64,000 nt of DNA from Marsupella aquatica (Eukaryota > Plantae > Marchantiophyta). Made by a program: the position numbers and the translations under genes. The notes under the pieces are model-generated. The model did no database searches. It saw nothing but the letters and a program-made list of their open reading frames with translations, and was not told where the DNA came from. This document shows positions 9,291 to 47,401 of the stretch, piece after piece. The stretch is from positions 13,842,359 through 13,906,358 of the forward strand of contig OZ316893.1 in the NCBI GenBank assembly GCA_973895155.1, given 5' to 3'. Position 1 is the stretch's first letter; the number at the start of each line of letters is the position of its first letter.

Positions 9291-9533
9291 ACTCATCTCT
9301 CAATGAACCTTTTGTGCTAAACACTTACTTAGAGGCATCCTAGAAAATCATAACATTGAGAATGAATCTAAAATTGACAAATTTTTTCATTATAGTGGTG
9401 GACCTTGCCACCCAGCGCCCTCACCGATCCCAACACCCACACCCACACCCACACCTAAGTGTTCTTGGTGCCCAAACACCTCCACAAAACTTGTTGAGAA
9501 AGTAACTTGGTAACTTTTGCACCTCCAGCAGCC

Positions 9534-9892
9534 TGTCATGCCGAGGGATAGTACCTCTTATGCACATCGGCATGTCCCTCACATGCCCGCTAGGTATGTA
9601 GTTAGGGCTAGTGTACTACTTGAGTTAGCGACATGTTCTTATAGCAAATGCCAGGCGTTCTTGAAGCAAACGCGCTTGCTAGTGTGACGCCAGGACTTTG
9701 TTTACTTAGGGCATGTCTTTCTTTGTGGGTTTTTTTCAGTTCTTCTTGAATCGCCATTGACAAAGCTCAGACAGTGCTCGTCGGTTCCGTACACGGGATT
9801 CACACAGTGATTCGTTAGATGCTCCCAGCCGATCTTGGCATCCTGCCGGTTTTCGATTCGATTTCAGTACAATTGTTTCTCTTACGCCTTTT
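9534..9892 (+). repeat. Terminal repeat segment A (359 bp) of element A
   Basis: Homologous to 27921-28090 + 32843-32985 and to 37329-37684. Homology with 37329-37684 stops at ...TTACGCCTTTT. Confidence 0.9.
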
Positions 9893-9906
9893 ATTCAAGA
9901 AGAACT
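9893..9906 (+). promoter_or_regulatory. Putative self-priming primer-binding site
   Basis: ATTCAAGAAGAACT lies directly after segment A and is the exact reverse complement of 9738-9751 (AGTTCTTCTTGAAT). No TGG-type tRNA PBS at this position. Confidence 0.7.
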
Positions 9907-11546
9907 CTGATGAGGGGAAGAAGATCGGAGACGCTGTGCTTCTCAATTGCTCGAGACAATTGATATTTTTCCGTTGATGCCGGTGCAATTTCTATGGAAA
10001 AACGTTGAGCGATGGGGTGGAAGTTATGGCTTGTGTGTATACACTTAAGTATATACACTTAAGTCAAACAGGCCCCCCTCCCTCTTTTCCTTCGCGCTTT
10101 GCTTTCAGGGTTTTTCATTTTCTGGCCGCTGCCAACTGCTGCTTCAACGCCTGCCACGACCTTTTTCGGGCCATTTTTCGGTGTTCCCCGGACAATTTCC
10201 GTCGTGAGCTGTTCCCCGGCCGCGACCCCTTTTTCTTTACTCGGCAGCTGCCGTCGCGAGCTGCTTCCGGTCCGGCAGCTACTCTGCCTGTGTATACACA
10301 CATTCGGGGCCCATCAATGCCCCTGGGCCGTGCATAGGGCCGCGCGCGCTCCTTTCGCTCCGCCTTACGCACATAGGGCATCGTGCCCTGGTCTTAATAG
10401 GAGCTGTTGGCAGGAGGAGGAGCCGAGTACAAGGCAGCGCGAGGAGAGGAGGGGGCACGAGGCCCTATGCTGAATTAAAGAGGGAGGGGGAATTCAATTA
10501 GACTCCCTTCTCTTGGGAGTAGGTTCATCCGTGGCCAGGCAAGAGCGCAAGGAGAGGGCACGAAGCCCTATGAAGCATTAAAGGGGGGAGGGGAGGGGAG
10601 GGGAGGGGAGTATATACGACTCCTTCCCTCAGGAGTCCTTCTGCCAGGCACAGAGGCCCATGAAGCATTAAAGCAAGAGAGGAAGGGAAGTGAGTGTGCC
10701 AGAAGATCATTAAGAGGGCGGAGGGAATTTCCTTTTGGGAGCTCATAAGGAGGGGGAGGGGGCGCGAAGCCCTATGCAGGGCTCGAGCCCATTAAGAGGG
10801 GCCCATTTCTGCTCTTTCGCCTCTTCCTTTGCCACCCGACTGTCAGTGCCCGATTCTCCCTTTTTTGGCCATTTTCCACCTCTCGACATTTTCTTTCTCC
10901 GTGCCACCCGGCCTTGGTGTATACACATATGGGAGTGCATAGGGCCGTGTGCCGTCCCTACGACTCCCTTCGGCATTTTTCCGGTAGTGACCTCCATCGG
11001 GCCGCGACCTGCTTACGGCCAAGTTTTCCCCCCGGCCGCAACGACAACTCCAACAAAGGAGCTGCACGGATATTGGGCACCAGCCGGTGCATCTTATGTG
11101 TATACACATAAGGGAGGGACCCTTTCCACCGTTTTTGTTGTTTTTATTCCTTTTTTTAATTTTGACCCTTATAGGCAAGGCCAGTATACACATGGGGGCT
11201 AATTTCATTATGTTTAGCCCGGCCTCCTTGCCTCACCCCGTTTGCTTCATTGTGGGTTACATTTCCTAGCCTTGGGGTTGCCACACCTTTTTCTTGTCAG
11301 TTTCTTTCCCGTTGGCACCCCGGGTGAGCATGCAGCATGTCAGCAGAGGAACCAAGTCATAGCAGCACATCGCCACCGACACCTAGGTACCATTTACGGA
11401 GTGATCCACGACCATTGGTGCCAATTTCATTGGAGTCTCGGCAATTTCGATGACATCAACAGACAACAGCAGCACCCACACCACGCAACCCTTCTGCTAC
11501 ATTTGGCGGTCGCTTCACCACTACCCCAAAGCCTGTTATTGCTTCT

Positions 11547-13139
11547 TTGCCCTTTACTCCTTCTACATCAGTGGTTGTTCCAGCTTCTCCGACATACAGC
11601 ATGGACACCAGCCACTCATCTGGCCGCATTGAACGCTTCAGTGGGCGGTCAGGCACTGTTTCTTTGCGTGAGTTCAAATCCACTTTCTACACTGTCGTTT
11701 ACGAATTGGAGTTGAAGTACGGCAACAATTTCACAAATGCTTTTGCATTTAAGCAGCTAGCCAGGTATGTGCACCATGAGGCTTTGGATGTGTATGAGCA
11801 GCACTCTCAACGGCTGCTTGTTGTCACACAATTGCCTAACCCTGCCTATGCCAGTGCAATTGCGGCAGCATCACAATTGGCCTTACAGAATGCCATTGCA
11901 GCCCATGCTGCTGCTCCTGCCACTTCCCCTCCTACTCCAGTTCCTACCACTACGCCAGTTACTCCCACTATCTTGGCACACGCTACATCAGGCATTTCTC
12001 CCACCATTGATTCCCCTGCCTTTGCTAATCCAGTGGCTGAGTTTTTCCAGGTTCTTGAATTGGAATTCCCCATCAAGAGTGCTGACAAAATCATGCAGTT
12101 GGCCACCTTTGTGAGGCAGCGCGATGAAACCTTGAAGATGATGTATCGTCGGCTTCTCAAGCTGAAGGAGGACACCCAGAGCATCACTGACCTGGAAGTT
12201 TCTCATCGCTATCTTCGCGCATTGGAGGGCACACCAGCTCTCCATTCGCAAGTGTTGCAGCAAGTATTCTCAGAGTTTGGAGATAGCTACACCCTGCTCA
12301 ATGTCTATGACACTGCTGAGAAACTTGAGTTGGCCCATGCACATTATGAGGCCAGTATTGCGCGTCCACCGCGATCCAGGTACCAGGCTGCTGCTCCTAC
12401 AATGGCCACCCCTTCCCGTGTGCCACAGTATGCTTCCAAGACCAAACCAGCACATGCTGCTTTCATGCTGCCATCTTGCAACTACTGTGACAATCCTAAT
12501 CACAAGGCTAATGAATGTGATATTGTTGCTGAGGACCTGCCTTGTGATTTTTGCGGGCAAGTGGGCCACTTGGAGGCAGTTTGTTTTGCCAAATTCCCAG
12601 AGAGGAAGCAGCTACGACAACAGGCCACTCATCCTGCTCCTATTTCCACTCCCCCACCAGCTAGGAGGGCTCCTACTGCATCAATTGCTCCTCCTTCCAG
12701 TGGCAAAGCAACCAGTGCCAACAAATTGCCCAAGCAGCAACAGAAGCCACCAGCTCAGAAGGAGGCTCACAACGCACAGGCAACTCAACTCCAGTCTCTG
12801 ACTCATGAGGTTGAGTCCCTACGTGCCCAACTTGCCAACATCAAAGGCACGTCAACTGCCTCTGCTAGTCCTTCTCAACCGGTTGGTCACGTGCAACCCA
12901 TCCCTGGCCCAAGCACCACTGACAGTTCAGCACCTCTACCCCGCTCTTTCTATGGCTTGCCATTTGATGCTCATATGGGTGAGTGTGTGCTGTCCTCTGC
13001 TCCACAGCCTGGCCTTACAGCAAAATTTTCAGATTCATTTTGCCCTTCCTATTTTTCTTACCAGCAAGCCAGTGCGCCTCTCGTATTGCTCCCACACACC
13101 GCATTGTACAGGCTGATGGTCTTGCTGCCGGTCCTATGA
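11547..13139 (+). pseudogene. gag: Gag of element A (capsid-like region and two CCHC zinc knuckles); 3' end frameshifted
   Basis: IERFSG...LREFKSTF, QRDETLKMMYRRL, then CNYCDNPNHKANEC and CDFCGQVGHLEAVC. Likely start MDTSHSS at 11601. Confidence 0.85.
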
Positions 13140-13230
13140 CTAGAGCCAGGGGAGCTCGGGCTGTCTTGCCCCAATCTTTTCAGCCACTCACACTTGCTGA
13201 AGAGCGCACCTTGTTGGCGAGGGGGAGGGA

Positions 13231-14427
13231 GCTGCAGCTACATCCATTCCACCACCAGGTGCTGCTGACATTTCACAGAGAGTTATTTCTCCTGAGCTGC
13301 TTGAGCATGTCACCTCCGGTATGGCACAAAGGATTCTTACAACTCCACTTTTCAGTTGCCATGATATATAGCTGGATGCTAGAGCTGTCATCAGAGCGCT
13401 AGAGGGCTCACTGCATTCTTCATCAGCCCCTGTGACACCGGTTTTGGAGGTCCAATCTCATGTACATACTGGACCTTCTTCTTCTCCATTACATGCTTCC
13501 ACTGGTTTGGCTATCCCAGTACCAATTTCCAGTGGTAGAGATGACAGTATTGCTGCAGATTGTGTGACCAAAGCTACACTGGATTCTGGTCATGCTGCTC
13601 CATCTTTCCTGGCTATGCTGTTGAGTGGGCAGACCGTGGACACTAACTCCCTTCACAAGGTACCTCATCATTTGCCAAAAGTGGTGCCTAGTGACAGGAC
13701 TTTAGTTTCCACCACCATTGCCATTGTTGACAACATGAATTCAGCGGTCAAGTTGGAGGGTCACACTCCTCAGGTGGTCATGCTAGACATAGGCACTCAA
13801 CCAGTGATATTGGGCATTCAGTTTGCCAAGAAGATGGGACTACTGACTGATCACTTACAGCAATCCTGGTGGCACATTCGGACTGCTAGTGGCACTGTGG
13901 AGGACGTGTTGGGTGAGAGTTCTACTTTACTCACTCTCACTTTTAATGGAGGTATAGATCAGGAACTGCATTTCCCAGTCAGATGTTTGGTTACGTATGA
14001 TGTGCTCATTGGCCAGGAGGCTTTGTTCCCACCAGGTTTTACCAGTGACAACTGGCATGAGCATGCATACTACAGAGTTGATTGGCATACTGATGGCTCA
14101 CACTTGGGCTACATTCCCCTTGATTTGCATGGTGCCCATACACCTATGGCTCACCACTATGTGTTGAAAGCAGTGCACACAGCTACCTATGTCAACCACC
14201 CATTGCAGGATTGGATTGAGGAGGATGATGATGAGGTGGCTGCTGCACGTATAGCAGCACTTTCCATCAGCGTGGATCATCAACCAGAGGTGGTATTATG
14301 GCTCCAAGCAGCCCATGGACCTTTGGTGGCTGCATTACGCAAATTTGAGGACCTTGGGCAGCACAATGGACAACCGATAGCCCCAATCTTGAGCGCATCA
14401 GTTACATGGACTCCTCCTTCGGATGGC
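13231..14427 (+). pseudogene. Aspartic protease region of element A pol
   Basis: VVMLDIGTQPVILG (degenerate LD[T/S]G[A/S]) near 13780 and YDVLIGQEAL. Same frame as the downstream DNMT domain; one TAG near 13369. Confidence 0.75.
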
Positions 14428-15365
14428 CTTACATTGCTTGAGCTTTTTGGTGGCATTTCTATAGGCCTGGAAGCTCTCCTACAGTCTGGCATGGTGGTGA
14501 AGTAGTACATCTACGTGGACATTGATCCAGGTGCAAGGCACGTGGCTGAATCCCGTTTGCTAGAATTTTCAAAGCGATTTCCCCAGCAGTTTCCACATAG
14601 TGCATGGAAGTCTGCATTTTCTTTCTTCCCTCCAGATATCCAGCTTGTCCAGCACCGACACTTAACCCTTCTTGGCTCCCTTGATTTGATCATAGCTGGT
14701 TGGGAATGCCAAGGGTTTTCAGCTGCTGGTCACGGTGCTGGATTGCATGATTTTCGTTCTGGCCTTTTCACAGCATTGGTTCAGATTCTCACCTGGGCTC
14801 AATCCCTTTATCCTGCTGTTGGTTATATCATTGAGAATACTCCATCTCAGTTTGACCAGCGTCCACAGGTCAAAGAGGATTTCAGTGTGGTCCAGCACTA
14901 CTTGGGACCACCCCTTCTCATTGATGCAGTGCACTGTGGTTCTTATGCACATCATCTTTGTAACTTTTGGACTAACCTTGCACCACCTTCCTTGTTGGAG
15001 TTAGCTCTTCACCACACATCCAGGGACACTAACCTCATAGTGGACCAGATTTTGGATCCTAACAGTTCTTGCCAACCAATTACACGGCAAGAGCCAGCAC
15101 CTTGGTATCCAGCCAATACCATTGGACAGCCTCGTGCTACTTGGCCTACATTTGTGTCCTTTCCAGGTGCACATGCTTTTCAGGGTGATGGTCCTGGCCT
15201 AGTTTATCGACATTCTACCGGTACATGGGATGAACCTAGTCCTGAGGAGAGAGAGCGGGCTATGGGCTTCCAACCCGGTACTACAGGTCACACCAAAATC
15301 ACCAGGCTGGCCAGGAATGCTTTACTTGGCAGGGTAATGGATCTTCATGCTCTCACTTGGCTTCT
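14428..15365 (+). pseudogene. C5-cytosine DNA methyltransferase domain embedded in the retroelement pol
   Basis: Motif I LLELFGGI; motif II YVDID; motif IV DLIIAGWECQGFSAAG (Cys at 14707); RSGLF; motif VI YIIEN; motif VIII-like AHHLCNFWTNL; motif IX ERERAMGF; motif X LLGRVMD. One in-frame TAG at 14503. Confidence 0.9.
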
Positions 15366-17521
15366 GGTCACTTGCATCTTTTTCAGATGTACATTCATCC
15401 AGCATCAGGAGTTCCAGCCCTACCACTCCATGGTGCTGCTACATGGCATCCAGACCAGGTGCACTTACCTCTATTCAACACTCACCGCTTCAGTCCAAGT
15501 GTTGGGGGGGAGGAGGTCCCTTGTAATGTGGCTGACATTATTTCTGAGTTTCATGGTGTGGATCAGACCAGAGCAACAGATACAACAGGCCTTGGAGAGG
15601 CCTCATCACCTTATCAGCAGCATGCTAGCAGCTTGGGTGGAGAGGCTGGCACTTCTGGCTCTTCAAGCACGAGTACATCAGGTCCTATTCCTAGTGTTGC
15701 CAACTACACATTCATCATGGGCAACCACCTGAGTAAAAGACAGAAGGACCAGCTGCTGAATTTGCTCCTCAAGCATGAGAATGTGTTTGCTTTCTCTACG
15801 AAGGACTTGGGTAAGTGCAAGACTATGCAGTTCTCCATTGAGTTGGCTGATGAAACACCTATCTTTAGGCGGAGACACCGTTTGAGTAAGCATGAGTGGC
15901 AACTGGTGGATGAGAGGTGCCAAGAGCTCTATGAAGCTGGTCTTATTCAGCCATCTACATCAGATTGTGCAGCAGCTACAGTGATGCCAACAAAGAAGGA
16001 TTCTAGTGGATTGTGGATAGAGAAGCGCATGTGTGGGGACTACAGGCCACTGAACTTGGTCACACCCCAGGACAGGTACCCCATGCCACGGCCAGAGGAG
16101 CTATTTGACAGCATTGGAGACTCAGACATCTTCACTCTTGTGGATCTAAGGCAAGGCTTTAACCAGATTTTGCTGCTTGCAAAGGACCCCAAGAAAACAG
16201 CTTTCCATGGCAGTAACCAACTATGGGAGTGGTTGGTGATGCCATTTGGCTTGAAGAATGCGCCCATATTCTTTCAAAGAGTCATGGACCAGGTTCTTCA
16301 AGGTGCTGAGTTTCTGAAATGCTACATTGATGATGTGTTGGTCCACAACAAAGGATTTGACCAGCATCTACTTGACCTTGAGGAGCTATTCATGAGGCTT
16401 AAGAAGGTGAACCTAAAGATACACCCCAAGAAGTGTGAATTTGCTGTCAGATCAGTAGTATACCTTGGGCACCACATTCTTCCAAATGGAACCATGGCTC
16501 TCTGGGCCAAGGTGGTATCCATCTTGGAAATGCCCACTCCTACCGATGTTCACACTTTGAGGAGTTTTATTGGGTTGTGCAATTACTACCGGATCTACAT
16601 CAAAGATTTCAGCACCATTGCACACCCATTGTATGCTTTGTTGAAAAAGAATGTGACTTGGACATGGAGTACAGATGCTGAGGCAGCATTTGCCACTTTG
16701 AAGGAGAAGCTCTCAGAATACCCGGTGCTGAGAAGACCTGATTTCAGCAAGGTCTTTGTGCTACACACAAATTGGAGTGCCCTTGGGATTGGTGCCATTT
16801 TGGGCCAGCATGATGAGGAAGGTAAAGAGTACGTCATTGCCTATGCATCCAGGAGCAACAATCAGGCGGAGAGTCATTATTCTTCGTATAAGGGTGAATG
16901 CCTTGCTGTTGTGTGGGCTGTCATACATTACAGGCCCTACCTCTATGGGACCAGGTTTGCCCTCTACACCGACCACCAGCCCTTGAAGTGGTTGATGACC
17001 AACGACAAGCTTACTGGCAAGCTTGCTAGTTGGGCGCTCATACTCCAGGAGTATGATTTTGAGGTAATTCATAGGCCTGGTGTGACACATCAAAATGCTG
17101 ACACTATGTCCCGCAGCCCTTTGATTGCCTCTGATGATTCCTCAGATGCACGACAGGATTTTGACCAGGTTTCCATCCTGCCTACATTTCATGCATCTAC
17201 CTATCTTGCTTTGCTGCCATGCTACGTTGTTGACCAACTTGTGGTGGACATATGGGAGGACAACGACACTCTGAGATTTTTGCAGCATGGGGAGTACCCC
17301 ATACATGTTACTGCTGCCCAGAGAGACCAAATTCAGCAAAGGTCCAAGCGTTACTTGTGGAAGGGAGATAATCTCGTGCGCTACTTGCCAGACAGGGAAG
17401 TGGTGGTTCCACCCATTCATGAGAGGGTTGGCCTTATCCGTAAGGTACATTCTGAGCTTGGTCATTTTGGCGTTAAGAGGACTTACAGCCTCTTGGTCCC
17501 TCATTATCATTGGAGAGGCAT
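15357..17521 (+). pseudogene. pol: RT, RNase H and integrase N-terminal zinc-binding region of element A
   Basis: RMCGDYRPLN, DLRQGFNQI, VMPFGLKNAP, YIDDVL, YLGH; RNase H VLHTNWS...ECLAVVWA...YTDHQPL; HSELGHFG. Cut at WRG|MHG by element B. A 1-bp deletion near 15378 separates it from the DNMT frame; copy 2 (ORF 33705-33896, LVTCILFQMYIHP) is in frame there. Confidence 0.93.
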
Positions 17522-20500
17522 TGTGATGCCTAGACAGGAATCACTCGGCCGGTTAAGTGGGTAAAGCAGGAAGGCACCCTAGGAACACCTTAGTATAGTG
17601 ACAAAACAAGGAAAATATAAACAATTAGGGGCAACCATGGAACCCGGGCAGAGGCCGGAGGTAAGGCTGAGGGTGAAAACCCGATTAGGGTTAGGGCGCG
17701 TTAAGCGTCGGCGGCTAGGAAGGATCAACGGGAAGAAGGACCGGCAGAGGAGAGGGGTAAGGAGCGCTTGCAGGAGATGGTGGCTCATTTGCGAGCACGA
17801 ACTAGGCAGACGACTACGGGAGGCCAACTACTGTCAGCTGCTTAGGCAAGCACTCGGGGAGAGAGTAGATACCGACGATCAACCTAAGGAGGGTATGAGC
17901 AACGTCAATCAAGCGGCACATTTCTGGGGATGCCTGTTCGAATGGGCAACTGAGTACATCAAGACTTACGAGGACGAGGAGTCAGAAAGGGCAGCTCGAG
18001 AACGGCAGGAGCTCGCTCGATTGTGGGAGCTGCAGAAGACGGCTTTCTTAGGAGGCAAACTCATCAAGGACGAGTTCCTGTGGACGCCTACTTCCAATCA
18101 ACTCGACGATCTTCTGTTTTGCAAAGACAGCGTCGTCGGCATCCGAGAGGCCATCAAGAACTGCAACGACATACACTGGGAATTAAAGGGTAGCACGGAA
18201 AGGTGGACCCGGGCAACGGTGCTAGGAGAAACCTCCACGGCAGCAGAGATGAAGAGGAAGGGAGCCGTCAACGATGAAGCCACCCCGGCAAAAAGAACGA
18301 GGTCGGCGGCACCAAAGAAGCCAGCCGAGCAGCAGAGCAGGAGGCAGGGAGAAGCCGAAGAGGAGGAGGTCGATCCCATCAAGGCCATTCCAACCAAGGA
18401 TGACACCTGGAAGGGCTGGGCGGCAACCCTACCGGTGGAGGTGCAACTACATTTTGCACGGGAGGAGGATGCATGCTTTACGGCCATGCAGACCAAGAAG
18501 TACCAAGGCTTCATGGCCGGATCCGGCTTGGAGGCCTTTGTAAGATTACCATGGCTGAAGCCGGAGGTACCGGAGTCAGACCTATTAGAATTCGTGGGGT
18601 CATGGGAACCCGAGACCAATTGCACGAGGATATATGGGAAGGATTTCTATCTTACTCCCAAGGTGATTGCCGAAGTGTTTGGCTTGCCGATGGGCAATAA
18701 GACCAAAGTTGATACCAGGAAGACCTTGCCTGACAAGGAGTTCCGGTCGTTCCCCGGGCCATCAACGAAGAATGGCTTCTTCCGGAACACCTGCACCAAC
18801 CCGCACATAGGAGAGATGATCGACTTCTTGCGGGTGACCATGCATTGTAACTTGCCGAGGGCAGAGATCGGCAAGGCACAGGTCTATCTGGCAGAAAGGC
18901 CAGACCCAAGCCGGGACTACAACGGGTACCTCCTCAACCAATTGAAGAAGATCTTAAAGGAGGAGCAGCAGGTAATCGGCATGGGGAGCGTGTCGCGGCT
19001 TGGCTATCACATACCGCTGTTGTGCCGGTATGCCAGAGGTCAGACTTTTGCCCCGGTACTTCCCCTGCAGGTAAGGGCACCCGAGGAAGCTCCAACGCCG
19101 AGGCCGTTGGCTGAGAAGCCTCAACCACCTGTTAGTCCTACGATCGAGCAGGTGTTTAGGCCCAGGAAGGAAGACTTGCCGATGCAGCAACCAGGCATGC
19201 AGAGTCTGCTGAAACTACTGGAGAAAGAAAAGAAATCGGCATCGGCAACAACAACGGCAACGGCAACAATGCAGGACACTACTACAGAGGTAGGCCTACA
19301 CCGGCTCACAAGAGAAAACCCCTTTGCTGGAGACAAGGAGAGAATCAGGCCGGAATCCAAGCCAGGTATTCGAATGTACGTGGGAACCTCAAGCTCCGAA
19401 TCTGAGGCAGAATTGCCTGAAGCTCCTACCGACGAAGAGGAGAGGGAGAAGCCGGAAATCCAAGAGGTAGAGGAGGCAGTGGAGGACTGCAGCCATGATA
19501 ATTCCGGCTATGGGTCGGACCATCACGTTCCAGGAGTAAGGACCTGTGGCCGGTTTGTCCCCACACTTCCAAGGGTAGTGCGAGGGGACCCCAACCAGCA
19601 GAGTAGCCCTGAGTCTCCCCCACCAGATGTTGCTCCCCCGAGCTTCGACGGCATAAAACAGACGGTGCAGGAATTTCAGGAGCGAATCAAGCAGGAGGAA
19701 GAGGCCGCCCTGGCTAAGGAAAAGGATTTACCAGGAGGAGATTGGCCGGAGGACATCAGGCGGCTAGCCGAAAAAGGAAGCAAACCTCTAGCCACGATTG
19801 AAGAGATCCGCAGGACGGCTTGGGAGCAGAGGCCACGATGGGCGATGCCGATCACTTCTACTTACTCCACCTACGCTAAGAATAGAGCCATGGAGTATGG
19901 TGAGATGTGTGGGGAACTTGCGCTCGGCATCTTTGGAGAGGAGTTGGAGGTAGGACCCTTTTTTCATAGGGAGCAGTTGGAGAAGCACCAATTAGAAGAA
20001 GCGGTGGCTTTAGAGAGAAGCAAGAAGGACGAGGTCATTCGGCGGCTTAGGAGGATGGAAGCCGAGATTGAAGATCTAAGGGCGGCCAAGAAAGCCCAAG
20101 ATGAACTGCGGATTAAACGACATGAGCTGAACATCATGCAGGGGCAGTTGGACGCCGCGCAGGCTGATAATCAGAATATCAAGGATAAACTGACTCAGAC
20201 ACAGGAAGAGTTGGCCGACACGATCAAAGAAAGGGAAAAGTGGAAGCAAGAGCTGAAGAATACAGAGGAGGCCCACATAACAGCCAACAGCCGGGCCATG
20301 GCGGAGACCCAAAGAAAGGAGTGGGCGTTGAAAGGGGAGCTCGAGAAAATCCGCGGAGCCCTTGAGCAGAAGGAGGTCGAGTTAGGGAAATCCTATCAAG
20401 GGATTATGGCGCTGCAGCAGGAGCTTGCGTCCCTGACGGCCAGCTTCAAGGCCGACCTAAGGGAGAAGGACGAGATGCTCGAACAGACTTACGCCAAGAT

Positions 20501-22157: not shown

Positions 22158-22162
22158 GGCAT

Positions 22163-23335: not shown

Positions 23336-23367
23336 ATTTTCTTCAGCCCTCCTTTTGGCTGTGGTCT

Positions 23368-23550
23368 GGGGGGGATACATAGGTTTACACCTCCACTACG
23401 TACATACCACTTCATTTGCTTTTTCTTGGCACTTGTGAATGTGATTGGACTTTTTCTATGCATGTTGGTTGCTAGCAGCTTGCACATATGCCTTGCCGGT
23501 GACTTATATGTTTTCGATACACTATGGCTACGATACTATATGTCACGACA
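23368..23550 (+). repeat. G7 PPT-like tract (23368-23374) and terminal segment B (23375-23550)
   Basis: Segment B is homologous to 37151-37326 and 37685-37861 and ends TGTCACGACA. Confidence 0.85.
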
Positions 23551-28414: not shown

Positions 28415-29755
28415 ATGACCTCGCACCAAGATTGGCGTGTAAAATTTCAGAAGCAGATACAAGATGAATTGGCAGAACTTGAAGTAGAGCAAAAATTGTG
28501 GGAAGATACAACAATCAATGGACCACTGAATCTGATGGACTGGTACAATCGGCACAAGGTATGTGTGCATGGTGGATCAAGGCCAGGGAAATCACCTAAC
28601 ATTGATCGTGACTCGGAGGTAGGGCACAAACGTATATGGGATGACTATTTTTGAGTCAATCCTATTTACACAGATGCTCACTTTAGGTGTCGATTTAGAA
28701 TGAGAAGGCACATGTTTTGGAAGATTCATAATGCTATCTGTGAACACGATGAATATTTCATCCAAAAGCGAGATGTTGCTGGAAAATTGGGTCTTTCTTC
28801 AATTCAGAATATTACTGCTGCTCTTCGGCAGCTTTCACTCGGGGTTTCTGTTGATGCCATGGACGAGTACTATTGAATTGCAGAAACTACTGCATTGGAC
28901 TCTCTAAAGAATTTTTGTAGGGCCATACGTGAGGTGTTTGAGGCACATTATCTCAGACAACCCACCAAATCTAACTTGGAGAGACAATTCTTGATCAATG
29001 AAGCCAGAGGATTCCCTGGAATGTTTGGCTCTTTAGATTGTATGCACTACAGATGAAAAAATTGCCCTGTTGCCTGGCAAGGCCTTTTCGCAAACAAAGA
29101 CAGGGAGAAATCAATTGTCCTAGAAGCAATAGCAGATTAGTCATTGTGGTTTTGGCATGCATATTTTGGACTTCCTGGATGCAACGACGACCTTAATGTA
29201 CTGGACAGATCACCCTTGGTGAACAATATGCTCAGGAGTGAAGCACATAACTGCAAATTCAAAGTCAATGGAGTAGAGTATAATAGATACTACCTCCTCA
29301 CAAATGGGATCTATCCAGAATGGTCAATTTTTGTTAAAACTATTGCGCTGCCACAAGGAGAGGCCAGGAAGTGGTTTGCAAAATGTCAGGAATGAGCAAG
29401 GAAGGATGTCGAGAGAGCATTTGGAGTTCTTCAAGCGAGATTTGCAATTATTCAAAATCCTGCACGAATTCATTCTAGTGCTGTGATCAAAGACATATGC
29501 ATAGCATGTGTTATTTTACATAACATGATTGTTGAGGACAAAGGAGACGAAAAGCTGCCTCAAGATTGGGACCAAAGGCCAGGGGCAAGGAGCCATGGAA
29601 GCCTACTTCCGACTTCTGACTGGAAACAATATATGGCAGCCACTCGAACAATCCATGATTCAGAGACACATTACATGCTACGAAATGATTTAGTTGAGCA
29701 CTTGTGGAATCTGAAAGGCGAAGGTCATAGATTTGATTATGTCAGTCAAGTTTAG
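28415..29755 (+). pseudogene. PIF/Harbinger DDE transposase (HARBI1/ALP1-like) with several stops
   Basis: FRCRFRM, GMFGSLDCMH, WHAYFGLPGCNDDLNVLDRSP, YYLLTNGIYPEW, RKDVERAFGVLQARF, ACVILHNMIVED, LRNDLVEHLW. Confidence 0.92.
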
Positions 29756-30884
29756 AAACTAGGCCCAAGACAGACATGTACGAATGTGTTAAAACTTGTA
29801 TTGAAACTTGCACCATTTGTGCTCCTTCATTCAAATTGACTGCCTACAAAAGTGGCATTGTGTACAACCCTACCTCTCTAAATAAAATAAAATTCCTGCT
29901 TGTAACTTACACAATGCTGAACAAAGTCGGGGCTAGAGGTCAAAGCCAAGCTGTAAAATTGGCAATTCCACTTGACTAAAACTATCCCAGAGTGCCTGAA
30001 AATCTTTGCTCACTGTAGAGCTTGTGTAAATACACAAAAGTGGCATTATGGATTACTCAATCCTTTGGCCACTTCCACACATATCCACCATACCGTCACC
30101 CATCATCCGAATCCCCTTCATCTTCCTTATGTTCCTCCCGAGCTATTTCTCTCTGTCATTGCTTCCCATCGCTTGTATCTTTGCTCTGCATGTTCACGTC
30201 TAGCAGCCTCCTCGGTCGAGAGTTGCTCCGAAATTGACGCCCTCCACTGCTTCCTGACCTCTTCCTCATGACTGATCCAGGATGAGGGCTGTGGAACTAC
30301 GATTGCTGGTGCAGGATTAGGTCTTGTTGGACCAGCTCCAGTACGCACTCCCTCACAAGGTTTCAATACAGGAAGTGAAAGGTTTGAATGATCGGCAGCA
30401 GCCTCATCAGCAAGGCCAGGCACGGAAGATCCTCTCGCACTCTCCGTTGCTTGAATGCTTCCCTAAACTCTGCAAAGTGATGGTAATGAAATAAAGCAAA
30501 GCTTGACAAGGTAGTAGACAAAGCTTTCACGAGATCGATGAAATGAGGCAATAACAAAGTGCGAGCAAACACCTGCAGCCAAGGTCTTGTAGAGATTCTG
30601 TGAGGGTCGGGGCTGATGTTGTATGTAGGCGTTTTTGTACTATAGGAGAAGATTTTGAGAAGGTCCCTGTCTCTCCTTTCGTGGTCTATCGCTGGTTCAC
30701 GGTTTGCAAGGGCTCTCAATGTACTCAACACGGGAGAAATGAAAGAATGGACGCAGTGTCATTTATTACTTAAATCCGTTCATGAGAGCACACACATGCT
30801 TCTCATTATTAATACATAGCAGAGGAGTCCTCTGTACAAATTAAGAAATCTCCACTAGGAATAAAAGATGAAACTCTGCCTCAA

Positions 30885-31312
30885 GAGTAAAGTAACATCG
30901 TCAGTTATCAGTTCTTTCCATCAGTCGACCTGATATCAGTTGTCACATCATCTCAGAGAGGCCACCAAGATGCGGCGCCAAAAAAAATGCAAATTTTAAA
31001 AAATAAAATTCTCAAAATTTGATGAATAAAAAAAAAATGAAATTTTTTTCACTATGGGTGTTCGTACCGTACGGACATCGCTTCTTGGCGGGGACACCAA
31101 ATTTCCACAATTTTTTTTTCTATTTTTCTTTGTTTTGAAATTTTCAAGAAAATAATTTTAAAAAAAAAATTTCCCATTTTTTTTGTCCGCTCGCCAATCT
31201 CGGCGAGGTCAGCTGAGATGCATGGAAATGCAAAGTCGTCATCTCAGTTGCTCAGCTAAGATTCCAAAAAATTTCTGCGGAAAAATTGATAACTGATGAT
31301 CCTCGCTACCCC
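30885..31312. mobile_element. Mutator-like MITE inside the Harbinger
   Basis: 9-bp TSD CTGCCTCAA (30876-30884 / 31313-31321). G-initiated imperfect TIRs containing ATCRTCAGTTATCA. Confidence 0.75.
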
Positions 31313-31377
31313 CTGCCTCAAAAAGAAAACAAATCTTCTTTTATAGACTCCAAAACTATTGCAAAACCCAATTCACA

Positions 31378-32440
31378 CTACGCCAGGTCTTTGTACACAT
31401 GTGGTCTCCTATTGGGATCAAAGCCTCCTGTACAACTTGTATCAACACCTACAAAATGAAGGGCTTGTGGAATCATTGTAGGAGGTGTGTGCATAGGTCC
31501 AATTGGCTCCTGGCCAGGCACCTCAACTGGAATTGACACCTCCACAGGCGCTGGTGCACTTTGAAAAGCTATGGTTGGAGTATGTGTGGCGCCCTGAATA
31601 TCTGTCGACTCCTTTTCATATGCAACCTTGAATTTCTGAAGCTCCCGAGCTCTCCATTGCTTGAATTCCTGTCTGTAATCATCATCCACTTCTGCTGCCC
31701 TCATGGTGAACAAATTGTGAATGCTCTGATCCTGGAGTAGCTTCAAACATTTTGAATTGGTGAATGCCATATCCCTTTGGGCGTAAGCTGCAATCCGAAA
31801 AGCAAACTCCTCACTCTTCAGCTTTTTGGCAGCCTTGTTGCCCATGGGTCGTCCATTGCTGCTAAATTCCCCAGCAACACTATTATCACAATCATTTGGG
31901 TTTATGATTTCTGTAGGAAAATAGGGGGTGGGGGGTACATTCTCCTTGTCTGTAGGCGATGCCTTCCCCTTATCTGCTACAAAGCCCTTTCCTTTTGCCT
32001 TCTTGCCCTTTTGTTTATCTGCCATGTCTTCTATAGAATGGGAGAAACGTGGGCAATCTTTCAACAAGTACCAGCAGTCCATGAAAGAAAAATCCTTCCC
32101 CTTTGGATGTTGTGCCTGATAATGCTCTCTTGCCTTCTGCAAAGTATCTTCCTGATTGGAACCAGAAAGCCTCAGATCTTCTAGATTGGCATACAAACCC
32201 AAAAACTTTGCAATGTCATGCTTCAAATCTCCCCATTTGCTCTCGAGTGATCTTGAGCCTCTCTCTTGGGTACCTCTCGGCCTGTGTTGATTGTAGTGGC
32301 CAGCGACACGATCCCAAAAAGCTTGATTTTTTTGCCCTGCCCCCACAATAGGATCCTATCCTATGTTCACCCACGACATACACAATTGTTTAAACTCTCC
32401 AGACAAAAGTTTTTTGCCCGCGCGCACTATTCGTTGCCAT
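31378..32440 (-). pseudogene. Harbinger Myb/SANT-like DNA-binding protein (NAM-associated type)
   Basis: LCMSWVNIG*DPIVGAGQKNQAFWDRV...SLESKW...F.FMDCWYLLKDCPRF...RPMGNKAAK. Stop and frameshift in the 5' part. Confidence 0.85.
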
Positions 32441-35411
32441 CTTTGCCAAGGCCCACTCGAGCTTGACAACGTGCAGTAGCCCATGCAATGCGATAGTGCA
32501 GAAGCTCGTGCGATGTGACAGTGCAGAAGCGAGGAAAACTTTGTTGCAGGATTGGATCACGAGGTCCTTGCAACGCCGGACCACGGTGGGAACAGCAACA
32601 ATTGAAATTGTTGGATGGAGGCAAGACTAGGTAATCTGGGCCATTGCTAAAGGATGCCGCGCAACTTTGGAGTTTCTCCCAGCCCGCTTGTTGAGCGTAG
32701 GAGTGCCATGGCAAGAGGTGAAAAAGGTGGGGCGGGGCCGATAGGATTAGGGCTACGGGCGCCGGTGGGGGACGACATCGGTGGCATCCCCGCCAAATAC
32801 TGTCGGACCGCTCAGTATAGCGGACCAGTGGGAATGCTCTCAGGGCATGTCTTTCTTTGTTGGTTTTCAATTTTTCTTGAATTGTTGTTGACAGAGCTCA
32901 GACAGTGTTGGTCGGTTCCCACAATGATTCAATAGATGGTCCCGACCAATCTTGGCATCCTACTAGTTTTTGATTCAATTTCAATTTCCCTCTAGATATC
33001 CAGCTTGTCCAACACCGACACTTAACCCTTCTTGGCTCCCTTGATTTGATCATATCTAGTTGGGAATGCCAAGGGTTTTCAGCTACTGGTGACGGCACTG
33101 GAGTTACATGATTCCCGTTCTGGCCTTTCCACAACATTGGTTCAGGTTCTCACCTGGGCTCAATCACTTTACCCTGCTGTTGGTTATATCATTGAGAATA
33201 CTCCATCTTAGTTTGACCAATGTCCACAGGTCAAAGAGGATTTTAGTGTGGTCCACTTTGACGTGTGGACATTGGCCACCCCTTCTCATTGATGTGGTGC
33301 ACTGTGGTTCTTATGCACATCATCTTTGTAACTTTTGGACCAACCTTGCCCCACATTCCTTGTTGGAGTTAGCTCTTCACCACACATCCAAGGACAATAA
33401 CCTCACAGTGGACCATTTTTTGGATCCAACCAGTTCCTGCCAACCAGTTACACGGCAAGAGCCAACCCCTTGGTATCCAGCCAATACCATTGGAGAGCCC
33501 CATACTGCTTGGCCTACATTTGTGTCCTTTCCAGGTGCACATGCTTTTCACTCAGGGTGATGGTCCTGGCATGGTTTATCGACATTCTACTGGTACATGG
33601 GATGAACCTAGTCGTGAGGAGAGAGAATAGGCTATGGGCTTCCAACCTGGTACTACAAGCCACACCAAAATCACCGGGTTGGCCAAAAATGTTTACTTGG
33701 CTGGGTGATGGGTCTCAATACTCTTACTTTGCTTCTGGTCACTTGCATCCTTTTTCAGATGTACATTCATCCAGCATCAGGAGTTCAAGCCCTACCACTC
33801 CAGGGTGCTGCTACATGGCATCCGGACCAGATGTACTTACCTCTGTTCAACACTCACCGCTTCAGTCCAAGTGTTTGGGGGGAGGAGGTCCCTTGACATA
33901 ACATGGCTTTCATTATTTATGAGTTTCATAGTGTGGACCAATTCAGATCAACAGGTACAACAGGCCTTGGAGAGGCCTCATCACCTTATCAGCAGCATGC
34001 CAGCATCTTGGACATTGGAGAGGCTAGCAATTCTGGCTTTTCAAGCATGAGTACATCGATCAGGTCCTATTCCTAGTGTTGCCAACTACACATTCATCAT
34101 GGGCAACCACCTGAGTAAAAGACAGAAGGACCAGTTGCTAAATTTCCTTCTCAAAAATGAGAACGTGTTTGCTTTCTCTATGAAGGATTTGGGTAAGTAC
34201 AACACTATGCAGTTCTCTATTGAGTTGGTTGATGAAACACCTATCTTCAGGCGGAGACACCATTTGAGGAAGCATGAGTGGCAGCTGGTGGATGAGAGGT
34301 GTCCAGGGCTCTATGAAGCTGGTCTTATTTAGCTATCTACATCAGATTTTGCAGTAGCTACAGTGATGCCAGCAAAGAAGGATTCCAGTGGATTGTGGAT
34401 AGAGGAGCACATGTGTGGAGACTACAAGCCACTAAACCTGGTCACACCCCAGGATAGGTACCCCATGCCACGGCTAGAGGAGCTATTTTGACAGCATTGG
34501 AGGCTCAGACATCTTCACTCTTGTGGATGTAAGGCAAAACTTTAACCAGATTTTGTTGCTTGCAAAGGATCGCAAGAAAACAACTTTCCATGGTAGTAAC
34601 CAACTATGGGAGGGGTTGGTGATGTCATTTGGCTTGAAGAATGCACCCATATTCTTTCAAAGAATCATGGACCAGATTTTTAAAGGTGCTGAGTTTATGA
34701 AATGCTAGTACATTGATGATGTGTTGGTCCACAACAAAGGATTTGACCAACATCTACTTGACCTTGAGGAGCTAACCATGAGGCTTACGAAGATGAACCT
34801 AAAAATACACCCCAAGAAGTGTGAATTTGCTGTCAAATAAGTAGTATATCTTGGGCACCGCATTCTTCCAAATGGAACCATGGCTCACTAGGCCAAGGTG
34901 GTGTCCATCTTGGAAATTATGCCCACTCCTGATGTTCACACTCTTAGGAGCTTTACTTGGTTGTGCAATTACTGTCGGATCTACATGCATCAAAGATTTC
35001 AGTACCATTGCACACCCATTGTACGCTTTGTTGAAAAAGAATGTGTCTTGGACATGGAGTACAGATGCTGAGGCAACATTTGCCACTTTGAAGGAGAAGT
35101 TGTCAAAATACCCGGTGTTGAGAAGACCTGATTTCAACAAGGTCTTTGTGCTCACACAGATTGGAGTGCCCTTGGGATTGGTGCCATCATCGGCCAACAT
35201 GATGAGGAAGGTAAGGAGTACGTCATTGCCTATGCATCCAAAAGCAACAATCAGGCCGAGAGTCATTATTCTTCTTATGAGAGTGAATGTCTTGTTGTTA
35301 TGTGGGCTGTCATACATTATAGGCCCTACCTCTATGGGACCAGGTTTACTCTCTACACCAACCACCAGCCCTTGAAGTGGTTGATGACTAACGCCAAGCT
35401 TACTAGCAAGC

Positions 35412-35686
35412 CTTGGGGGGTTGACTATCAAAATCTTAAGAACCGCGTGCAATCCAAAAAAGATATTTTTGATAGAAATTAACTAAAAAGCGTAGGAGGC
35501 AAAAGAAGGTCTTATAAACTCATGTTTATAGAATATTCTCTAATATGTATCTTTTGTAAAGTAAAATAGGTTATTAATATTGAAAATAGAGAATATTCTT
35601 GGATTTTTTTTATAAAATAGGTCTATTTATATTAGGCTAAGATCGCACATGGTACCCCAAAACATATACTTAGTTAACCCCCCGAG
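35412..35686. mobile_element. 275-bp MITE with 8-bp TSD (hAT-like) in the RNase H of element A copy 2
   Basis: TIR CTYGGGGGGTTRACTA; TSD TAGCAAGC / TGGCAAGC. The empty site ACTGGCAAGCTTGC is in copy 1 (~17013). Confidence 0.88.
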
Positions 35687-37150
35687 TGGCAAGCTTGCTC
35701 GTTGGGCGCTCATAGTCCAGGAGTATGACTTTGAGGTAATTCATAGGCCTGGTGTGACACATCAGAATATTGACACTATGTCCCGTAGCCCTTTGATTAC
35801 CTCTAATGATTCTCCAAATGCACGGCAGGATTTTAGCTAGGTTTCCATCCTACCTACATTTCATGCATCTACCTATCTTGCTTTGCTACCATGCTATGTT
35901 GTTGACCAACCAGTGGTGGACATGTGGAAGAACATCGACACTATGAGATTTCTTCAGCATGGGGAGTACCCCACACATGTAACTATAGCCTAGAGAGACC
36001 GCATTCAACAAAGGCCGAAGCGTTACTTGTGGAAGGGAGATCATCTTGTGTGTTGTTTGTCAGATAGGGAAGTGGTGGTTCAACCCATTCATGAGAGGAT
36101 TGGCCTTATTTGTAAGGCACATTCCGAGCTTGGTCATTTTGGCGTTAAGAGGACTTACAACCTCTTGGTCCCCCATTATCATTGGAGAGGCAGGCATGGC
36201 CAGGTTCAGGATGTTATTGCCCAGTGTGAACAATGTGATAGGATGAGGACTTCTTTCACATCTCGGCAATCCACACTTCATCCACTAGGCATGTTTTATT
36301 GCTGGCCCCTTACATCTTGAGGTAATCTCTACATTATGACCATGATAGAGTATTTCTCCAAGTGGATAGAACTTATGGCATTGCCGGATAAGACCTCTCA
36401 TAGCACCAGCCAGACATTCCTTCAACAAGTTCTCAGCCGCTTTGGAGCTTGTGCAGAACGTCTCATTGACCAGCGATCAGAGTTTAGAGGGGAATTCCAG
36501 GAGTTGCTTGGTCAGGCCCTCATTGATCATCATCGGATGTCACGAGATCACCCACAAGTAGATGGCTTGGCAGAGCGCATGGTTTAGACATGCAAGAAGA
36601 GGGTTGCTCTATTCAGAAGGGTTATGCTCCTGGCCATGGAGAATTTGGCCATTGCACAACACAGGGACACACTGCGTTATGCACACACACACGAGGGGAC
36701 AGTTTTCAACCCAAGGTCAAGAAGTTTGAAGTGGGAGATTTTGTGTACTTGCAGCAGCAAGCCAACAATACCCTGGACACCTCTATTAGTCGTACTATTC
36801 TCAGGGTTAAGGCTATTTGACCGTCTGGAGTGCTAGAGTTACAATGAGCAGATGGGCGCACAATTGCTGACAATGCCAAGAACTACGACCCTTGCCATCT
36901 GCCTAACTTGAATCCCACCATTGTGACTTCTACCTAGATTTCACTTATGGACTACCCGTGCAAAGTGTGTTTGCAAATTGACAATGCTAACCAGATGCTA
37001 CTATATGACAATTGCAATGGAGGGTACCATCTTTTTTTCCTTTGGCATGAACTTACCCAAGTGCTAGAGGGGTTATGGTTTTGCCCTTCGTGTGCTCCCA
37101 GTATTACCTGAATTTTCTTTAGCCCTCCTTTTGGCTGTGGTTTGGGGGGG

Positions 37151-37861
37151 ATACAGAGGTTTACACCTCTAGTACGTACATGTCATCTCATTTGCTTTTT
37201 CTTGGCACTTGTAAATGTCATGAGACTTTTTCTATGCATGTTGGTTGCTAGCGGCTTGCACATATGCATTGTCGGTGACTTGTATGTTTTCGATGCACTA
37301 TGGTTATGATACTATATGTCATGACAGCTATCATGCTGAGGGACAGCGCCTCCTATGCACATTGGCATGTCTCTTGCATGCCCGCTAGGTATGTAGTTAG
37401 GGCCACTGCTTGAGTACTAGCAACATGTTCTTATAGCAAATTCAAGGCATTTTTGAAGCAAACGTGCTTGTTAGTGTGACGCCAAGACTTTGCTTACTTA
37501 GGGCATGTCTTTCTTTGTTGGTTTTCAGTTTTTCTTGAATCGCTGACATTGACAGAGCTCAAATAGTGCTCGTTGATTCTGTACACATGATTCACACAAT
37601 AATTTGTTAGATGCTCTCAACCGATCTTGGTATCCCGCAGGTTTTTAATTCAATTTCAGTACGCTTGTTTCTCTTACGCCTTTTATATAGAGAGGTTTAC
37701 ACCTCCACTACGTACATATCACCTCATTTGCTTTTTCTTGGCACTTGTAAATATGATGGGACTTTTCTATGCATGTTGGTTGCTAGCGGCTTGCACATAT
37801 GCATTGCCGATGATTTTTATTTGTTTGATGCACTATGGTTATGATATTATATGTCACGACA
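37151..37861 (+). repeat. Split direct repeat block B1 (37151-37326) - GC - A2 (37329-37684) - B2 (37685-37861)
   Basis: Direct comparison with 9534-9892 and 23375-23550; preceded by G7 at 37144-37150. Confidence 0.9.
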
Positions 37862-47175: not shown

Positions 47176-47401
47176 ATGTGTTCATGTTGGGTGGAGGTTA
47201 TATCAGCTAGAAGTCAACAACTCAATCCTGTATTGCGTTGTCTACTACTGAGACTCAGTACATGGTTGCCTCACAAGCAACCAAGGAATTGATCTGGCTA
47301 TGATGATTGGTGAGTGATCTGGTCTTTCACCCAAAGACCGGTGATGTTATGTGACAATCAAAGTACATTGCATTTGGCTAAGAGACACGTGTTCCATGTT
47401 T

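Follow-up and report, generated by a model that had tools for sequence, protein, structure and literature searches.

Split direct repeats in a DDE-integrase Gypsy-type retrotransposon of a liverwort, with a proposed attachment site inside its LTR

How can a retrotransposon of the Gypsy type, carrying a DDE integrase, come to be bounded by two unlike sequences, A and B, which in one of its copies recur side by side only at the 3' end? The question is raised by two copies of one element in a window of 64,000 nucleotides (the whole stretch of DNA analysed) from the liverwort Marsupella aquatica, both of which are old, broken and dead Gypsy-type retrotransposons. Split direct repeats are found in PAT, TOC and Ngaro, which are DIRS-group elements, and the first-pass annotation of the window had regarded them as foreign to Gypsy elements. 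This view does not hold, since a DIRS-like layout on a Gypsy element is known already, noted for KnitGypsy-Dnmt3 in the accessible text of PMC5890265 (Fig. 4c legend) without a mechanism.

Layout and coding capacity of the two copies

Copy 1, which like all features described here is read on the forward strand, has the order A-internal-G7-B and is flanked on both sides by the 4-bp target site duplication (TSD) AGCC (9530-9533 and 23551-23554). Its left end reads AGCC/TGTCATG at 9534, while on the right the G7 polypurine tract (PPT, 23368-23374) is followed by B (23375-23550), which runs from ATACA to CACGACA/AGCC at 23550. Self-BLAST detected no terminal direct repeat within this copy, in agreement with the earlier description. 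A (9534-9894) is 84% identical to 37329-37686; it would represent the 3' part of the LTR used in reverse transcription (end of U3, R and U5), and B the 5' part. As BLAST matches 9533-9894 to 37328-37686 and A of relatives ends in AAT directly before the primer binding site (PBS), the terminal AT belongs to A, which ends at 9894 and not at 9892 as first annotated.

Copy 2 starts at 27921 (GACT/TGTGATG) and ends at 37861 (CACGACA/AACT), and its TSD matches at three of four bases (GACT at 27917-27920, AACT at 37862-37865). BLAST coordinates bear out the order previously given for it, A-internal-G7-B-GC-A-B: G7 (37144-37150) is followed by B1 (37151-37326), GC, A2 (37329-37686) and B2 (37687-37861), and the A and B repeats of the window match each other with E-values from 1e-43 to 1e-111. 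The direct A-B joint does fuse the base before the PBS to the base after the PPT, as had been claimed, at 37686/37687 rather than 37684/37685. The B-GC-A joint (37323-37332), a predicted integrase attachment site, reads GACAGCTATC, one change from the palindrome GACAGCTGTC of relatives. Sequence matching about 9867-14625 of copy 1 is missing from copy 2, namely the end of A1, the PBS, gag, the protease and part of the methyltransferase. In copy 2, A1 (27921-32983, composed of 27921-28090 and about 32843-32983) is split by a Harbinger-like insertion (28091-32839), and a MITE is also present. The decayed internal region (32986-37143), with part of the methyltransferase, reverse transcriptase (RT), RNase H, integrase and PHD finger, contains frameshifts and stops and is 84-90% identical to copy 1. 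The whole copy is nested in a second, inverted copy of a 4.6-kb element, element X. The first copy of element X, a foreign insertion of 4,636 bp (17522-22157; TG...CA ends, 5-bp TSD GGCAT) with a 1217-aa ORF matching no Pfam family above cut-off, interrupts the integrase of copy 1.

The domain order is Gag-protease-DNMT-RT-RNase H-DDE integrase-PHD, DNMT being a C5 cytosine methyltransferase, with Gag and protease matches in the window that lie below the Pfam cut-off. The gag-like ORF (11454-13139) has a weak CCHC zinc knuckle (zf-CCHC, E 0.008) and a weak match to the Gag of relative L082 (E 3e-7). It is followed by an ORF (13372-15732) with a weak aspartyl protease (E 0.007) and the methyltransferase (motifs ELFGG, WECQ and ENT; in-frame stop at 14503-14505), whose relative in L082 has DNMT3A/B as its best solved matches. 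RT (YIDD), RNase H and the H2C2 (HHCC) domain of the integrase lie in a different frame (15246-17516), and the integrase core (rve, with the D,D(35)E triad) resumes beyond element X (22163-23335), carrying a C-terminal PHD finger; a chromodomain is absent from this C-terminus. Chlamydomonas REM1 is another odd Gypsy element with a PHD finger.

The Ty3/Gypsy (Metaviridae) order Gag-PR-RT-RH-IN is thus present, the best solved match of RT-RNase H is Ty3 Gag-Pol (E 3e-68), and TG...CA ends with a 4-bp TSD fit the Ty3/Gypsy range of 4-6 bp. A tyrosine recombinase was found neither in six window ORFs nor in L082, an intact relative whose two long ORFs were scanned; its only other ORFs of at least 150 aa are the Gag start and one 163-aa antisense frame. 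The nearest named relative is from the liverwort Calypogeia fissa (87%). At the protein level, P0180, a DNMT-RT-RH-IN protein of Klebsormidium nitens that is not equated with the published KnitGypsy-Dnmt3, is co-linear with the window element at 30-52% identity. The DNMT-bearing polyproteins of the window and of K. nitens fall, not as sister rows, into one RT-RH clade of 38 rows (SH-aLRT 97) in a quick tree of 44 of 47 rows, built from search matches only, rooted on two chromodomain proteins and containing no named reference clades.

Recurrence of the layout in relatives

Relatives from other hosts were taken from the best 80 of at least 553 metagenome stretches, which are short-read assemblies in which chimeras are possible. 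Since window A or B as a DNA query matched none of 82 relative loci, the repeats were identified anew in each lineage. Relatives with no detectable DNA similarity to the window in A or B have the same layout; given this recurrence and the E-values of the window repeats, the split-repeat layout is confirmed as a family-wide trait and not a product of chance.

Among 57 distinct 3' ends, 32 are short (A-internal-B) and 25 long (A-internal-B-nn-A-B). The B-A spacer measures 2 nt in all 25 long ends (GC 9, AC 6, GT 5, AT 3, AA 1, TA 1), being GC or one of its transitions in 23, and ACGACA-GC-TGTCA recurs in L081 and L082 despite an integrase identity of 55%. In the 20 complete copies the TSD of 4 bp is exact in 10 and within one mismatch in 16, against a mean of 0.55 and a maximum of 5 in 5000 shuffles of the pairs; four copies have no TSD match, and exact TSDs of 5 bp and 3 bp occur in 0/20 and 1/20, respectively. 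Terminal direct LTRs around the internal region were seen in neither window copy and in none of these 20 relatives. The check that had been proposed against the split-repeat reading, a search for canonical LTR copies and for B-GC-A joints that vary or are unique to one locus, left it standing.

The boundaries set by reverse transcription are equally regular. The PPT directly precedes B, and never A, in 57/57 ends, with at least five G in the 8 nt upstream of B in each of them, and it is the PBS, rather than B, that adjoins the 5' A downstream. A stretch of 12-14 nt within A pairs with the bases just after A in three lineages with differing sequences. In copy 1 the predicted self-primer, the putative 5' end of the RNA (9738-9751), is fully complementary over 14 nt to 9893-9906, including the PBS directly 3' of A (9895-9906); all 25 control windows yielded only 5-7 nt. 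At least 10 of 12 bases pair in 15/20 relatives, each with a TATA box 32 nt away, and fewer in the other five; L082 has a third sequence, with a 13-bp match 29 nt from a TATA box. A clear TATA box 30 nt upstream of the self-primer was not seen in the window copy, and an Rfam scan of 9400-10400 returned one chance-level match. This complementarity predicts self-priming of the Tf1 type next to A, and B-GC-A would therefore be the LTR of reverse transcription, which upholds, together with the position of the PPT, the functional LTR suggested at first.

As in LTRs, the two A repeats of an element resemble one another more than they do those of other elements, and so do the two B repeats (median rank 0.04-0.09 over 8 A pairs and 21 B pairs); the members of a pair also have subfamily indels in common. 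Divergence is similar between B1 and B2 and between A1 and A2 (4-17%, mostly transitions), and its age prevents the steps from being dated. The integrase tree, which is mostly open (37/53 inner branches), shows the short and long forms intermingled (20 changes vs 18.5 when shuffled). The A-B joint is variable: judged by reading the joints, 12/25 are full length and 13/25 altered, and among the altered ones five have lost AT and three have gained TC, G or A.

Some further candidates were set aside. A circular form of L082 with a 127-bp terminal overlap was rejected as a true circle, may be an assembly-graph cycle, and was left out of the evidence. In a viral contig collection, five pattern matches to the integrase gave no confirmed relative, and the 30 matches to the joint motif, none accompanied by RT or integrase, are attributed to chance.

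Origin of the inserted ends

The inserted ends lie at the GC spacer inside B-GC-A, as the first-pass annotation had proposed, and we think the following origin likely: the RNA would prime itself, yielding cDNA with B-GC-A as its LTR, and the integrase would cut the internal palindrome GACA^GC^TGTC instead of acting on the cDNA ends. Transcription would start in A, about 30 nt after the TATA box, and the first 12 or so nucleotides of the RNA would anneal to the PBS and prime the minus strand as in Tf1. With the plus strand starting just after G7, the product would be B-GC-A-internal-B-GC-A. If each strand of the palindrome were then cut 3' of CA, the stagger would leave 2-nt 5' overhangs resembling processed retroviral ends, strand transfer would produce the 4-bp TSD, and end-joining of the orphan cDNA ends would create the A-B joint. 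Cutting of the left site only would give the long form, the only one with a 3' R and hence the only one predicted to be copied again; the short form could result from cutting of both sites, from a 1-LTR circle or from later recombination between B1 and B2.

The mirror form, A-B-GC-A-internal-B, was seen in 0/20 5' ends vs 25/57 long 3' ends (Fisher p 1.5e-4), and no A copy, of 56 aligned at both ends, had B-nn before it and the PBS after it. The absence of the mirror form is not predicted by the simplest version of the internal-cut model. The right site may never be cut alone if the left LTR becomes double-stranded first; alternatively, the right end may gain an additional LTR unit, and three sites on linear DNA would yield exactly the short, long and solo forms observed.

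The mirror form's absence would be accommodated by copying of the PAT/Ngaro kind, in which the RNA runs from A1 to B2 and the A-B joint is copied from the template and passed on; insertions would always be of the long form, later recombination producing the short and solo ones. Such copying accounts for A-internal-B-A-B, a layout shared with DIRS-group elements (PMC5890265, accessible text). Two independent A-B joints (L025, L034) have in common a duplication of 17 bp where A ends, which occurs at no end of A before a PBS, a weak hint that such joints can be inherited, and L034 also has a solo A-B with the TSD CAAT. We nevertheless regard this copying as unlikely. Self-priming beside A could not, by our reasoning, copy B2 into the minus strand; joints differ among near relatives, the five without AT requiring five changes on the tree (weak support); neither B1 and B2 nor A1 and A2 are told apart as classes by any column beyond what multiple testing predicts (best p 0.045 and 0.004, with hundreds of columns compared); and short forms are no older than long ones (p 0.33).

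Covalently closed 1-LTR and 2-LTR circles, cut by the integrase at any B-GC-A site, are a slightly less probable substrate still. The A-B joints resemble 2-LTR circle junctions, short and long forms correspond to the two kinds of circle, and HIV-1 offers a precedent (PMC1905944 and PMC4372172, accessible text). However, the plain 2-LTR circle put forward in the annotation would also give the missing mirror product, which refutes the symmetric form and leaves that model incomplete; once a left-site bias is added, it merges with the internal-cut reading.

It is very improbable that A-internal-B is a DNA transposon of the Ginger kind, excised by its DDE enzyme at short inverted ends, with B-nn-A as the junction of excision circles or tandems. 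The ends TGTCATG and CACGACA are indeed short, imperfect inverted repeats, the TSD is 4 bp long and B contains sub-terminal repeats. The spacers, on the other hand, are GC or its transitions in 23/25 (GC occurs in just 3/57 flanks) and not varied flanking bases, the A-B joints map exactly to the PBS and PPT, which reverse transcription alone defines, and intact relatives retain RT and RNase H. Ginger elements are DNA transposons with a Gypsy-like integrase and no RT, and membership of that group is rejected by the RT and RNase H of the window element. Finally, a canonical element with A+B as its LTR, locally rearranged or misassembled, is suggested by A2-B2 (37329-37861), which alone resembles a 533-bp TG...CA LTR, and by the age and nesting of both copies, and is refuted by the PPT and PBS positions, by TSDs flanking the permuted ends and by the identical layout in three lineages with unrelated A and B.

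Implications and comparison with known systems

On balance, we favour the wider reading that, in an old clade of DDE-integrase retroelements of streptophyte algae and bryophytes, the attachment site has shifted from the ends of the cDNA to the middle of the LTR. The integrase would be a site-specific cutter of a templated palindrome, this being the obligate route, with a built-in left bias favouring the copy-competent product. If true, this would be a third way of retroelement integration, between LTR and tyrosine-recombinase elements, deserving its own group, and the clade would be invisible to LTR-finding software. If the internal cut is right, a retroviral-type integrase would normally act from an internal palindrome and not from DNA ends, and the disputed cutting of the 2-LTR junction, a side reaction of HIV integrase, would become the principal life cycle of an element in nature. 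Furthermore, the end of reverse transcription and the attachment site, usually one LTR end, would be separated, split repeats could arise without a tyrosine recombinase, and an abundant family's escape from surveys requiring two LTRs would be explained; the survey in PMC6317226, according to its accessible text, selected on 5' and 3' LTRs.

The closest published likeness is KnitGypsy-Dnmt3 of Klebsormidium nitens (de Mendoza et al. 2018, PMC5890265), which has a Dnmt3-like methyltransferase in pol beside its Gypsy domains and whose legend states that the repeats follow the arrangement of a DIRS element, given as A-coding-B-A-B in the Fig. 1 legend, as in copy 2 and 25/57 relatives. The accessible text is silent on mechanism, TSD, short form, internal palindrome, self-primer and PHD finger. 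Beyond that article, a search to which subscription journals and Repbase Reports were external found nothing on an internal-palindrome mechanism in the accessible literature.

Troyka (Kojima 2025, PMC12440569), named at first as a possible LTR-less home for the element, does have LTRs, with CG...CG ends and 3-bp TSDs, and is found only in animals, as far as the accessible text goes; the order Gag-PR-RT-RH-IN is shared, and membership is rejected by the TG...CA ends and 4-bp TSD of the window element and by the single exact 3-bp TSD among 20 relatives. The DIRS group, to which SymbioDIRS-Dnmt3 belongs (PMC5890265, accessible text), shares A-internal-B-A-B and ends made inside the B-A joint, but uses a tyrosine recombinase, whereas the window element has a DDE integrase, a 4-bp TSD, a PPT, a PBS and a common short form.

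In the Tf1/sushi group and the plant Tcn1 chromoviruses, the accessible texts describe a self-primer at the RNA 5' end and a PBS beside the 5' repeat (10.1101/2022.12.06.519325, PMC6317226). The Gypsy domain order and a self-priming PBS, here in the form of complementarity, are shared with the window element. The LTRs of those elements are terminal, with CA as the last bases ahead of the PBS, and a chromodomain is present; in the window element, AT precedes the PBS, CA is internal to the LTR and a PHD finger takes the place of the chromodomain. Lastly, HIV-1 integrase, also of the DDE type, cuts the palindromic 2-LTR junction internally (PMC1905944, PMC4372172), and an internal cut of a CA-spacer-TG palindrome is predicted for the window element as well. 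In HIV-1, as far as those accessible texts describe it, this is a side route acting on an end-joined junction, whereas the palindrome of the window element lies templated within the LTR, and its cutting would be the normal route.

Structure and decay of the window copies

Both Gypsy-type copies in the window carry two split repeats, A and B, in the layout described by the first-pass annotation, whose boundaries were off by two bases: A ends at 9894, and the joint at which A is fused directly to B (A|B) lies at 37686/37687. Copy 1 (9534-23550, + strand), of the short form A-internal-B, starts with TGTCATG, ends with CACGACA and has the 4-mer AGCC on each side, and self-BLAST of the window detected no direct repeat between its ends. 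Copy 2 (27921-37861, +), flanked by GACT and AACT, is of the long form A-internal-B-nn-A-B, its 3' end reading G7-B1-GC-A2-B2, where G7 is the polypurine tract (PPT). Both are dead elements. An in-frame stop interrupts the DNMT region of copy 1, whose integrase also holds a 4.6-kb insertion. In copy 2 about 4.7 kb is missing, the PBS, gag and protease among it, and two insertions, stops and frameshifts are present.

A nested element, X, occurs as two copies mutually 64-76% identical, one within the copy 1 integrase (17522-22157, +) and the other hosting copy 2 (26633-40905, -). It is 4.6 kb long, with TG...CA ends, 5-bp target site duplications (TSDs; GGCAT and TTACA), no terminal repeat in self-BLAST and a 1217-aa ORF matching no Pfam family above cut-off; it may be a giant solo LTR, or else a further element without LTRs. 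A1 of copy 2 contains a DNA transposon (28091-32839; 12-bp inverted ends, TTA/TCA TSD, NAM-associated ORF) which we take from these features to be Harbinger-like. A 275-bp MITE (35412-35686; 14-bp inverted ends, 8-bp TSD matching at 7/8), presumably hAT-like, has a second copy at the window start (1-265). Another dispersed repeat family (6570-6744, 41618-41958, 46833-47177, 49100-49399), a short ~70-bp tandem array (8799-9107) and a LINE-like zf-RVT fragment (62402-63124) are also present.

Coding content and layout in relatives

In copy 1 a Gag-like ORF is accompanied by a weak protease, a C5 cytosine methyltransferase, RT, RNase H, an H2C2 and rve integrase carrying D, D(35)E, and a PHD finger. 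Ty3 was the top solved match of its RT-RH (E 3e-68), and no tyrosine recombinase was found among the six window ORFs scanned. Named relatives come from Calypogeia (87%), Sphagnum (65%) and Klebsormidium (50-55%), to which the intact relative L082, used as query, adds Marchantia, Riccia, Closterium and more distant chlorophytes; this range makes a bryophyte the likely host. In the RT-RH tree, built from 44 of 47 rows after omission of three too-short ones, the window falls inside a 38-row clade (SH-aLRT 97) together with P0180, a DNMT-RT-RH-IN protein of K. nitens. The DNMT of L082 has DNMT3A/B as top matches. The position of this domain varies within the clade, since in the protein P0125 (compared with window 14419-17342) the methyltransferase follows RT-RH instead of preceding it; another protein, P0219, pairs a PHD finger with a methyltransferase of the Dam type. 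L082 and a further locus, L081, are young, apparently intact members inside an assembly titled as a cyanobacterium, where they are likely eukaryotic contamination.

The A and B repeats of relatives have no detectable DNA similarity to those of the window and were identified de novo by self-comparison. The census covered relatives from other hosts, namely the best 80 of at least 553 metagenome stretches and two loci from genome_contigs. Removal from the 80 of nine without B in register (truncated or interrupted), six without a callable end and eight duplicates left 57 distinct 3' ends, 32 short (B, then flank) and 25 long (B-nn-A-B). Tabulated by architecture and TSD length, as the first-pass annotation had proposed, both layouts recur, and no (A+B)-internal-(A+B) copy was found among the relatives surveyed. 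The spacer is 2 nt in all 25 long ends (GC 9, AC 6, GT 5, AT 3, AA 1, TA 1), a spectrum that would be expected of a fixed GC decaying by deamination in CAG/CTG context. Among 20 two-ended copies a 4-bp TSD was exact in 10 and had at most one mismatch in 16 (shuffled pairs: mean 0.55, maximum 5), and did not match in 4; a 5-bp TSD was found in none of the 20. L081, at 55% integrase identity, also reads G7-B-GC-A|B; its B copies are identical, and its joint is likewise ACGACA-GC-TGTCA. One locus (L034) is a solo A|B with TSD CAAT. On the poorly resolved integrase tree the short and long forms intermingle, and short forms are no older than long ones (p 0.33). The split-repeat layout is genuine and conserved, and it is strange to find it in an element with a DDE integrase.

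Three internally deleted copies (L049, L068, L074; 2.3, 2.9, 6.0 kb) with intact ends, two of them with exact TSDs, resemble copy 2 and are possibly non-autonomous derivatives.

A candidate route of copying and integration

A G-rich tract lies immediately 5' of B in 57/57 ends. In the window, 9738-9751 inside A pairs over 14 bp with 9893-9906 just after A (control windows 5-7), with no evident TATA box for the predicted self-primer there. Of 20 relatives, 15 pair at no fewer than 10 of 12 positions between an A-internal stretch and the sequence after A, and in these the stretch lies 32 nt from a TATAAAA box; in L082, a third, unrelated sequence pairs over 13 bp, 29 nt from TATA. The pairing thus persists where the start site is expected although the three sequences differ, which is the pattern described for Tf1-type self-priming in passages of 10.1101/2022.12.06.519325 and PMC6317226; the element is predicted from sequence to prime its own reverse transcription in this way. 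Given the self-primer and PPT positions, the cDNA LTR would begin with B, continue over the GC and stop where A stops. This extent fits the finding that, within an element, A1 resembles A2, and B1 resembles B2, more than the repeats of other elements, the two members of a pair having subfamily indels in common (8 A and 21 B pairs).

The first-pass annotation had proposed circles cut by integrase inside this B-GC-A LTR. A 2-LTR circle holds two identical B-GC-A sites, and cutting the right one would yield the mirror form A|B-GC-A-internal-B. This form was seen in 0/20 5' ends versus 25/57 long 3' ends (p 1.5e-4), and among 56 A copies with both ends aligned, none lay between B-nn and the PBS; a few automatic labels in that check were wrong on inspection (e.g. 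L037, minus strand, and L064), none creating such a case. L082 reads B-GC-A-PBS on a terminally redundant contig, its circular form probably being an assembly cycle. The symmetric circle model is therefore incomplete. The left LTR might become double-stranded long before the right and be captured first; or an extra LTR unit might be added at the right end, which would provide three sites on linear DNA and give exactly the short, long and solo forms. Later B1xB2 recombination may contribute short forms. The long form would be the only one with A at both RNA ends, and thus the only one able to copy again.

At the A|B joint, the last base ahead of the PBS is joined directly to the first one following the PPT. 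By our reading, 12 of 25 joints are full length and 13 altered (AT lost in five, one base lost in two, TC, G or A gained in three, larger changes in three); end-joined cDNA ends would look so, which is consistent with a cDNA LTR spanning B to the A end. A 17-bp duplication that occurs at two independent joints, but at none of the A|PBS ends, speaks for a joint that is inherited rather than formed anew, a reading that nonetheless seems improbable. In L082 (~7410-7422 and 6950-6960) the A end plus PBS start shares 7 nt (CACTTGA) with the B start, and the final two bases of A equal the initial two of B (AT) both in the window and in the metagenome family; such shared bases may assist cDNA end joining.

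Every inserted end falls at the GC spacer in the middle of the 10-bp palindrome GACA-GC-TGTC. Cuts 3' of CA on each strand would give 5' overhangs of 2 nt, as on retroviral ends after processing, and strand transfer would then produce the 4-bp TSD; from the sequences we infer cleavage of this internal palindrome by the integrase. Recombination at a shared core is disfavoured, since the flanks show no GC bias (3/57). HIV-1 integrase can cleave a palindromic 2-LTR junction internally, according to PMC1905944 and PMC4372172. We regard the combination of self-priming, a B-GC-A LTR and palindrome cutting as the probable mechanism.

Comparison with known elements

Membership in Troyka, raised earlier as a possibility with this group taken to be LTR-less, is rejected: as described in part of PMC12440569, Troyka elements possess LTRs and CG...CG ends, have TSDs of 3 bp and are confined to animals. 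The Fig. 4c legend of PMC5890265 assigns DIRS-like repeats with Gypsy domains to KnitGypsy-Dnmt3, the available portion of its text giving no mechanism, and a passage of a 2026 preprint uses the group name 'Gypsy-DNMT3' in passing. The window element shares the testable features of this group. A published account of the short form, palindrome or self-primer was not found in a search lying outside subscription journals and Repbase Reports; the layout is already in print as a single legend sentence (PMC5890265), the mechanism apparently not. The element differs from canonical Gypsy elements in having no terminal LTRs and from DIRS in having no tyrosine recombinase in the ORFs scanned, and thus belongs to neither. 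In its predicted copying it is like self-priming Gypsy elements. In where its ends fall, it is like PAT/Ngaro.
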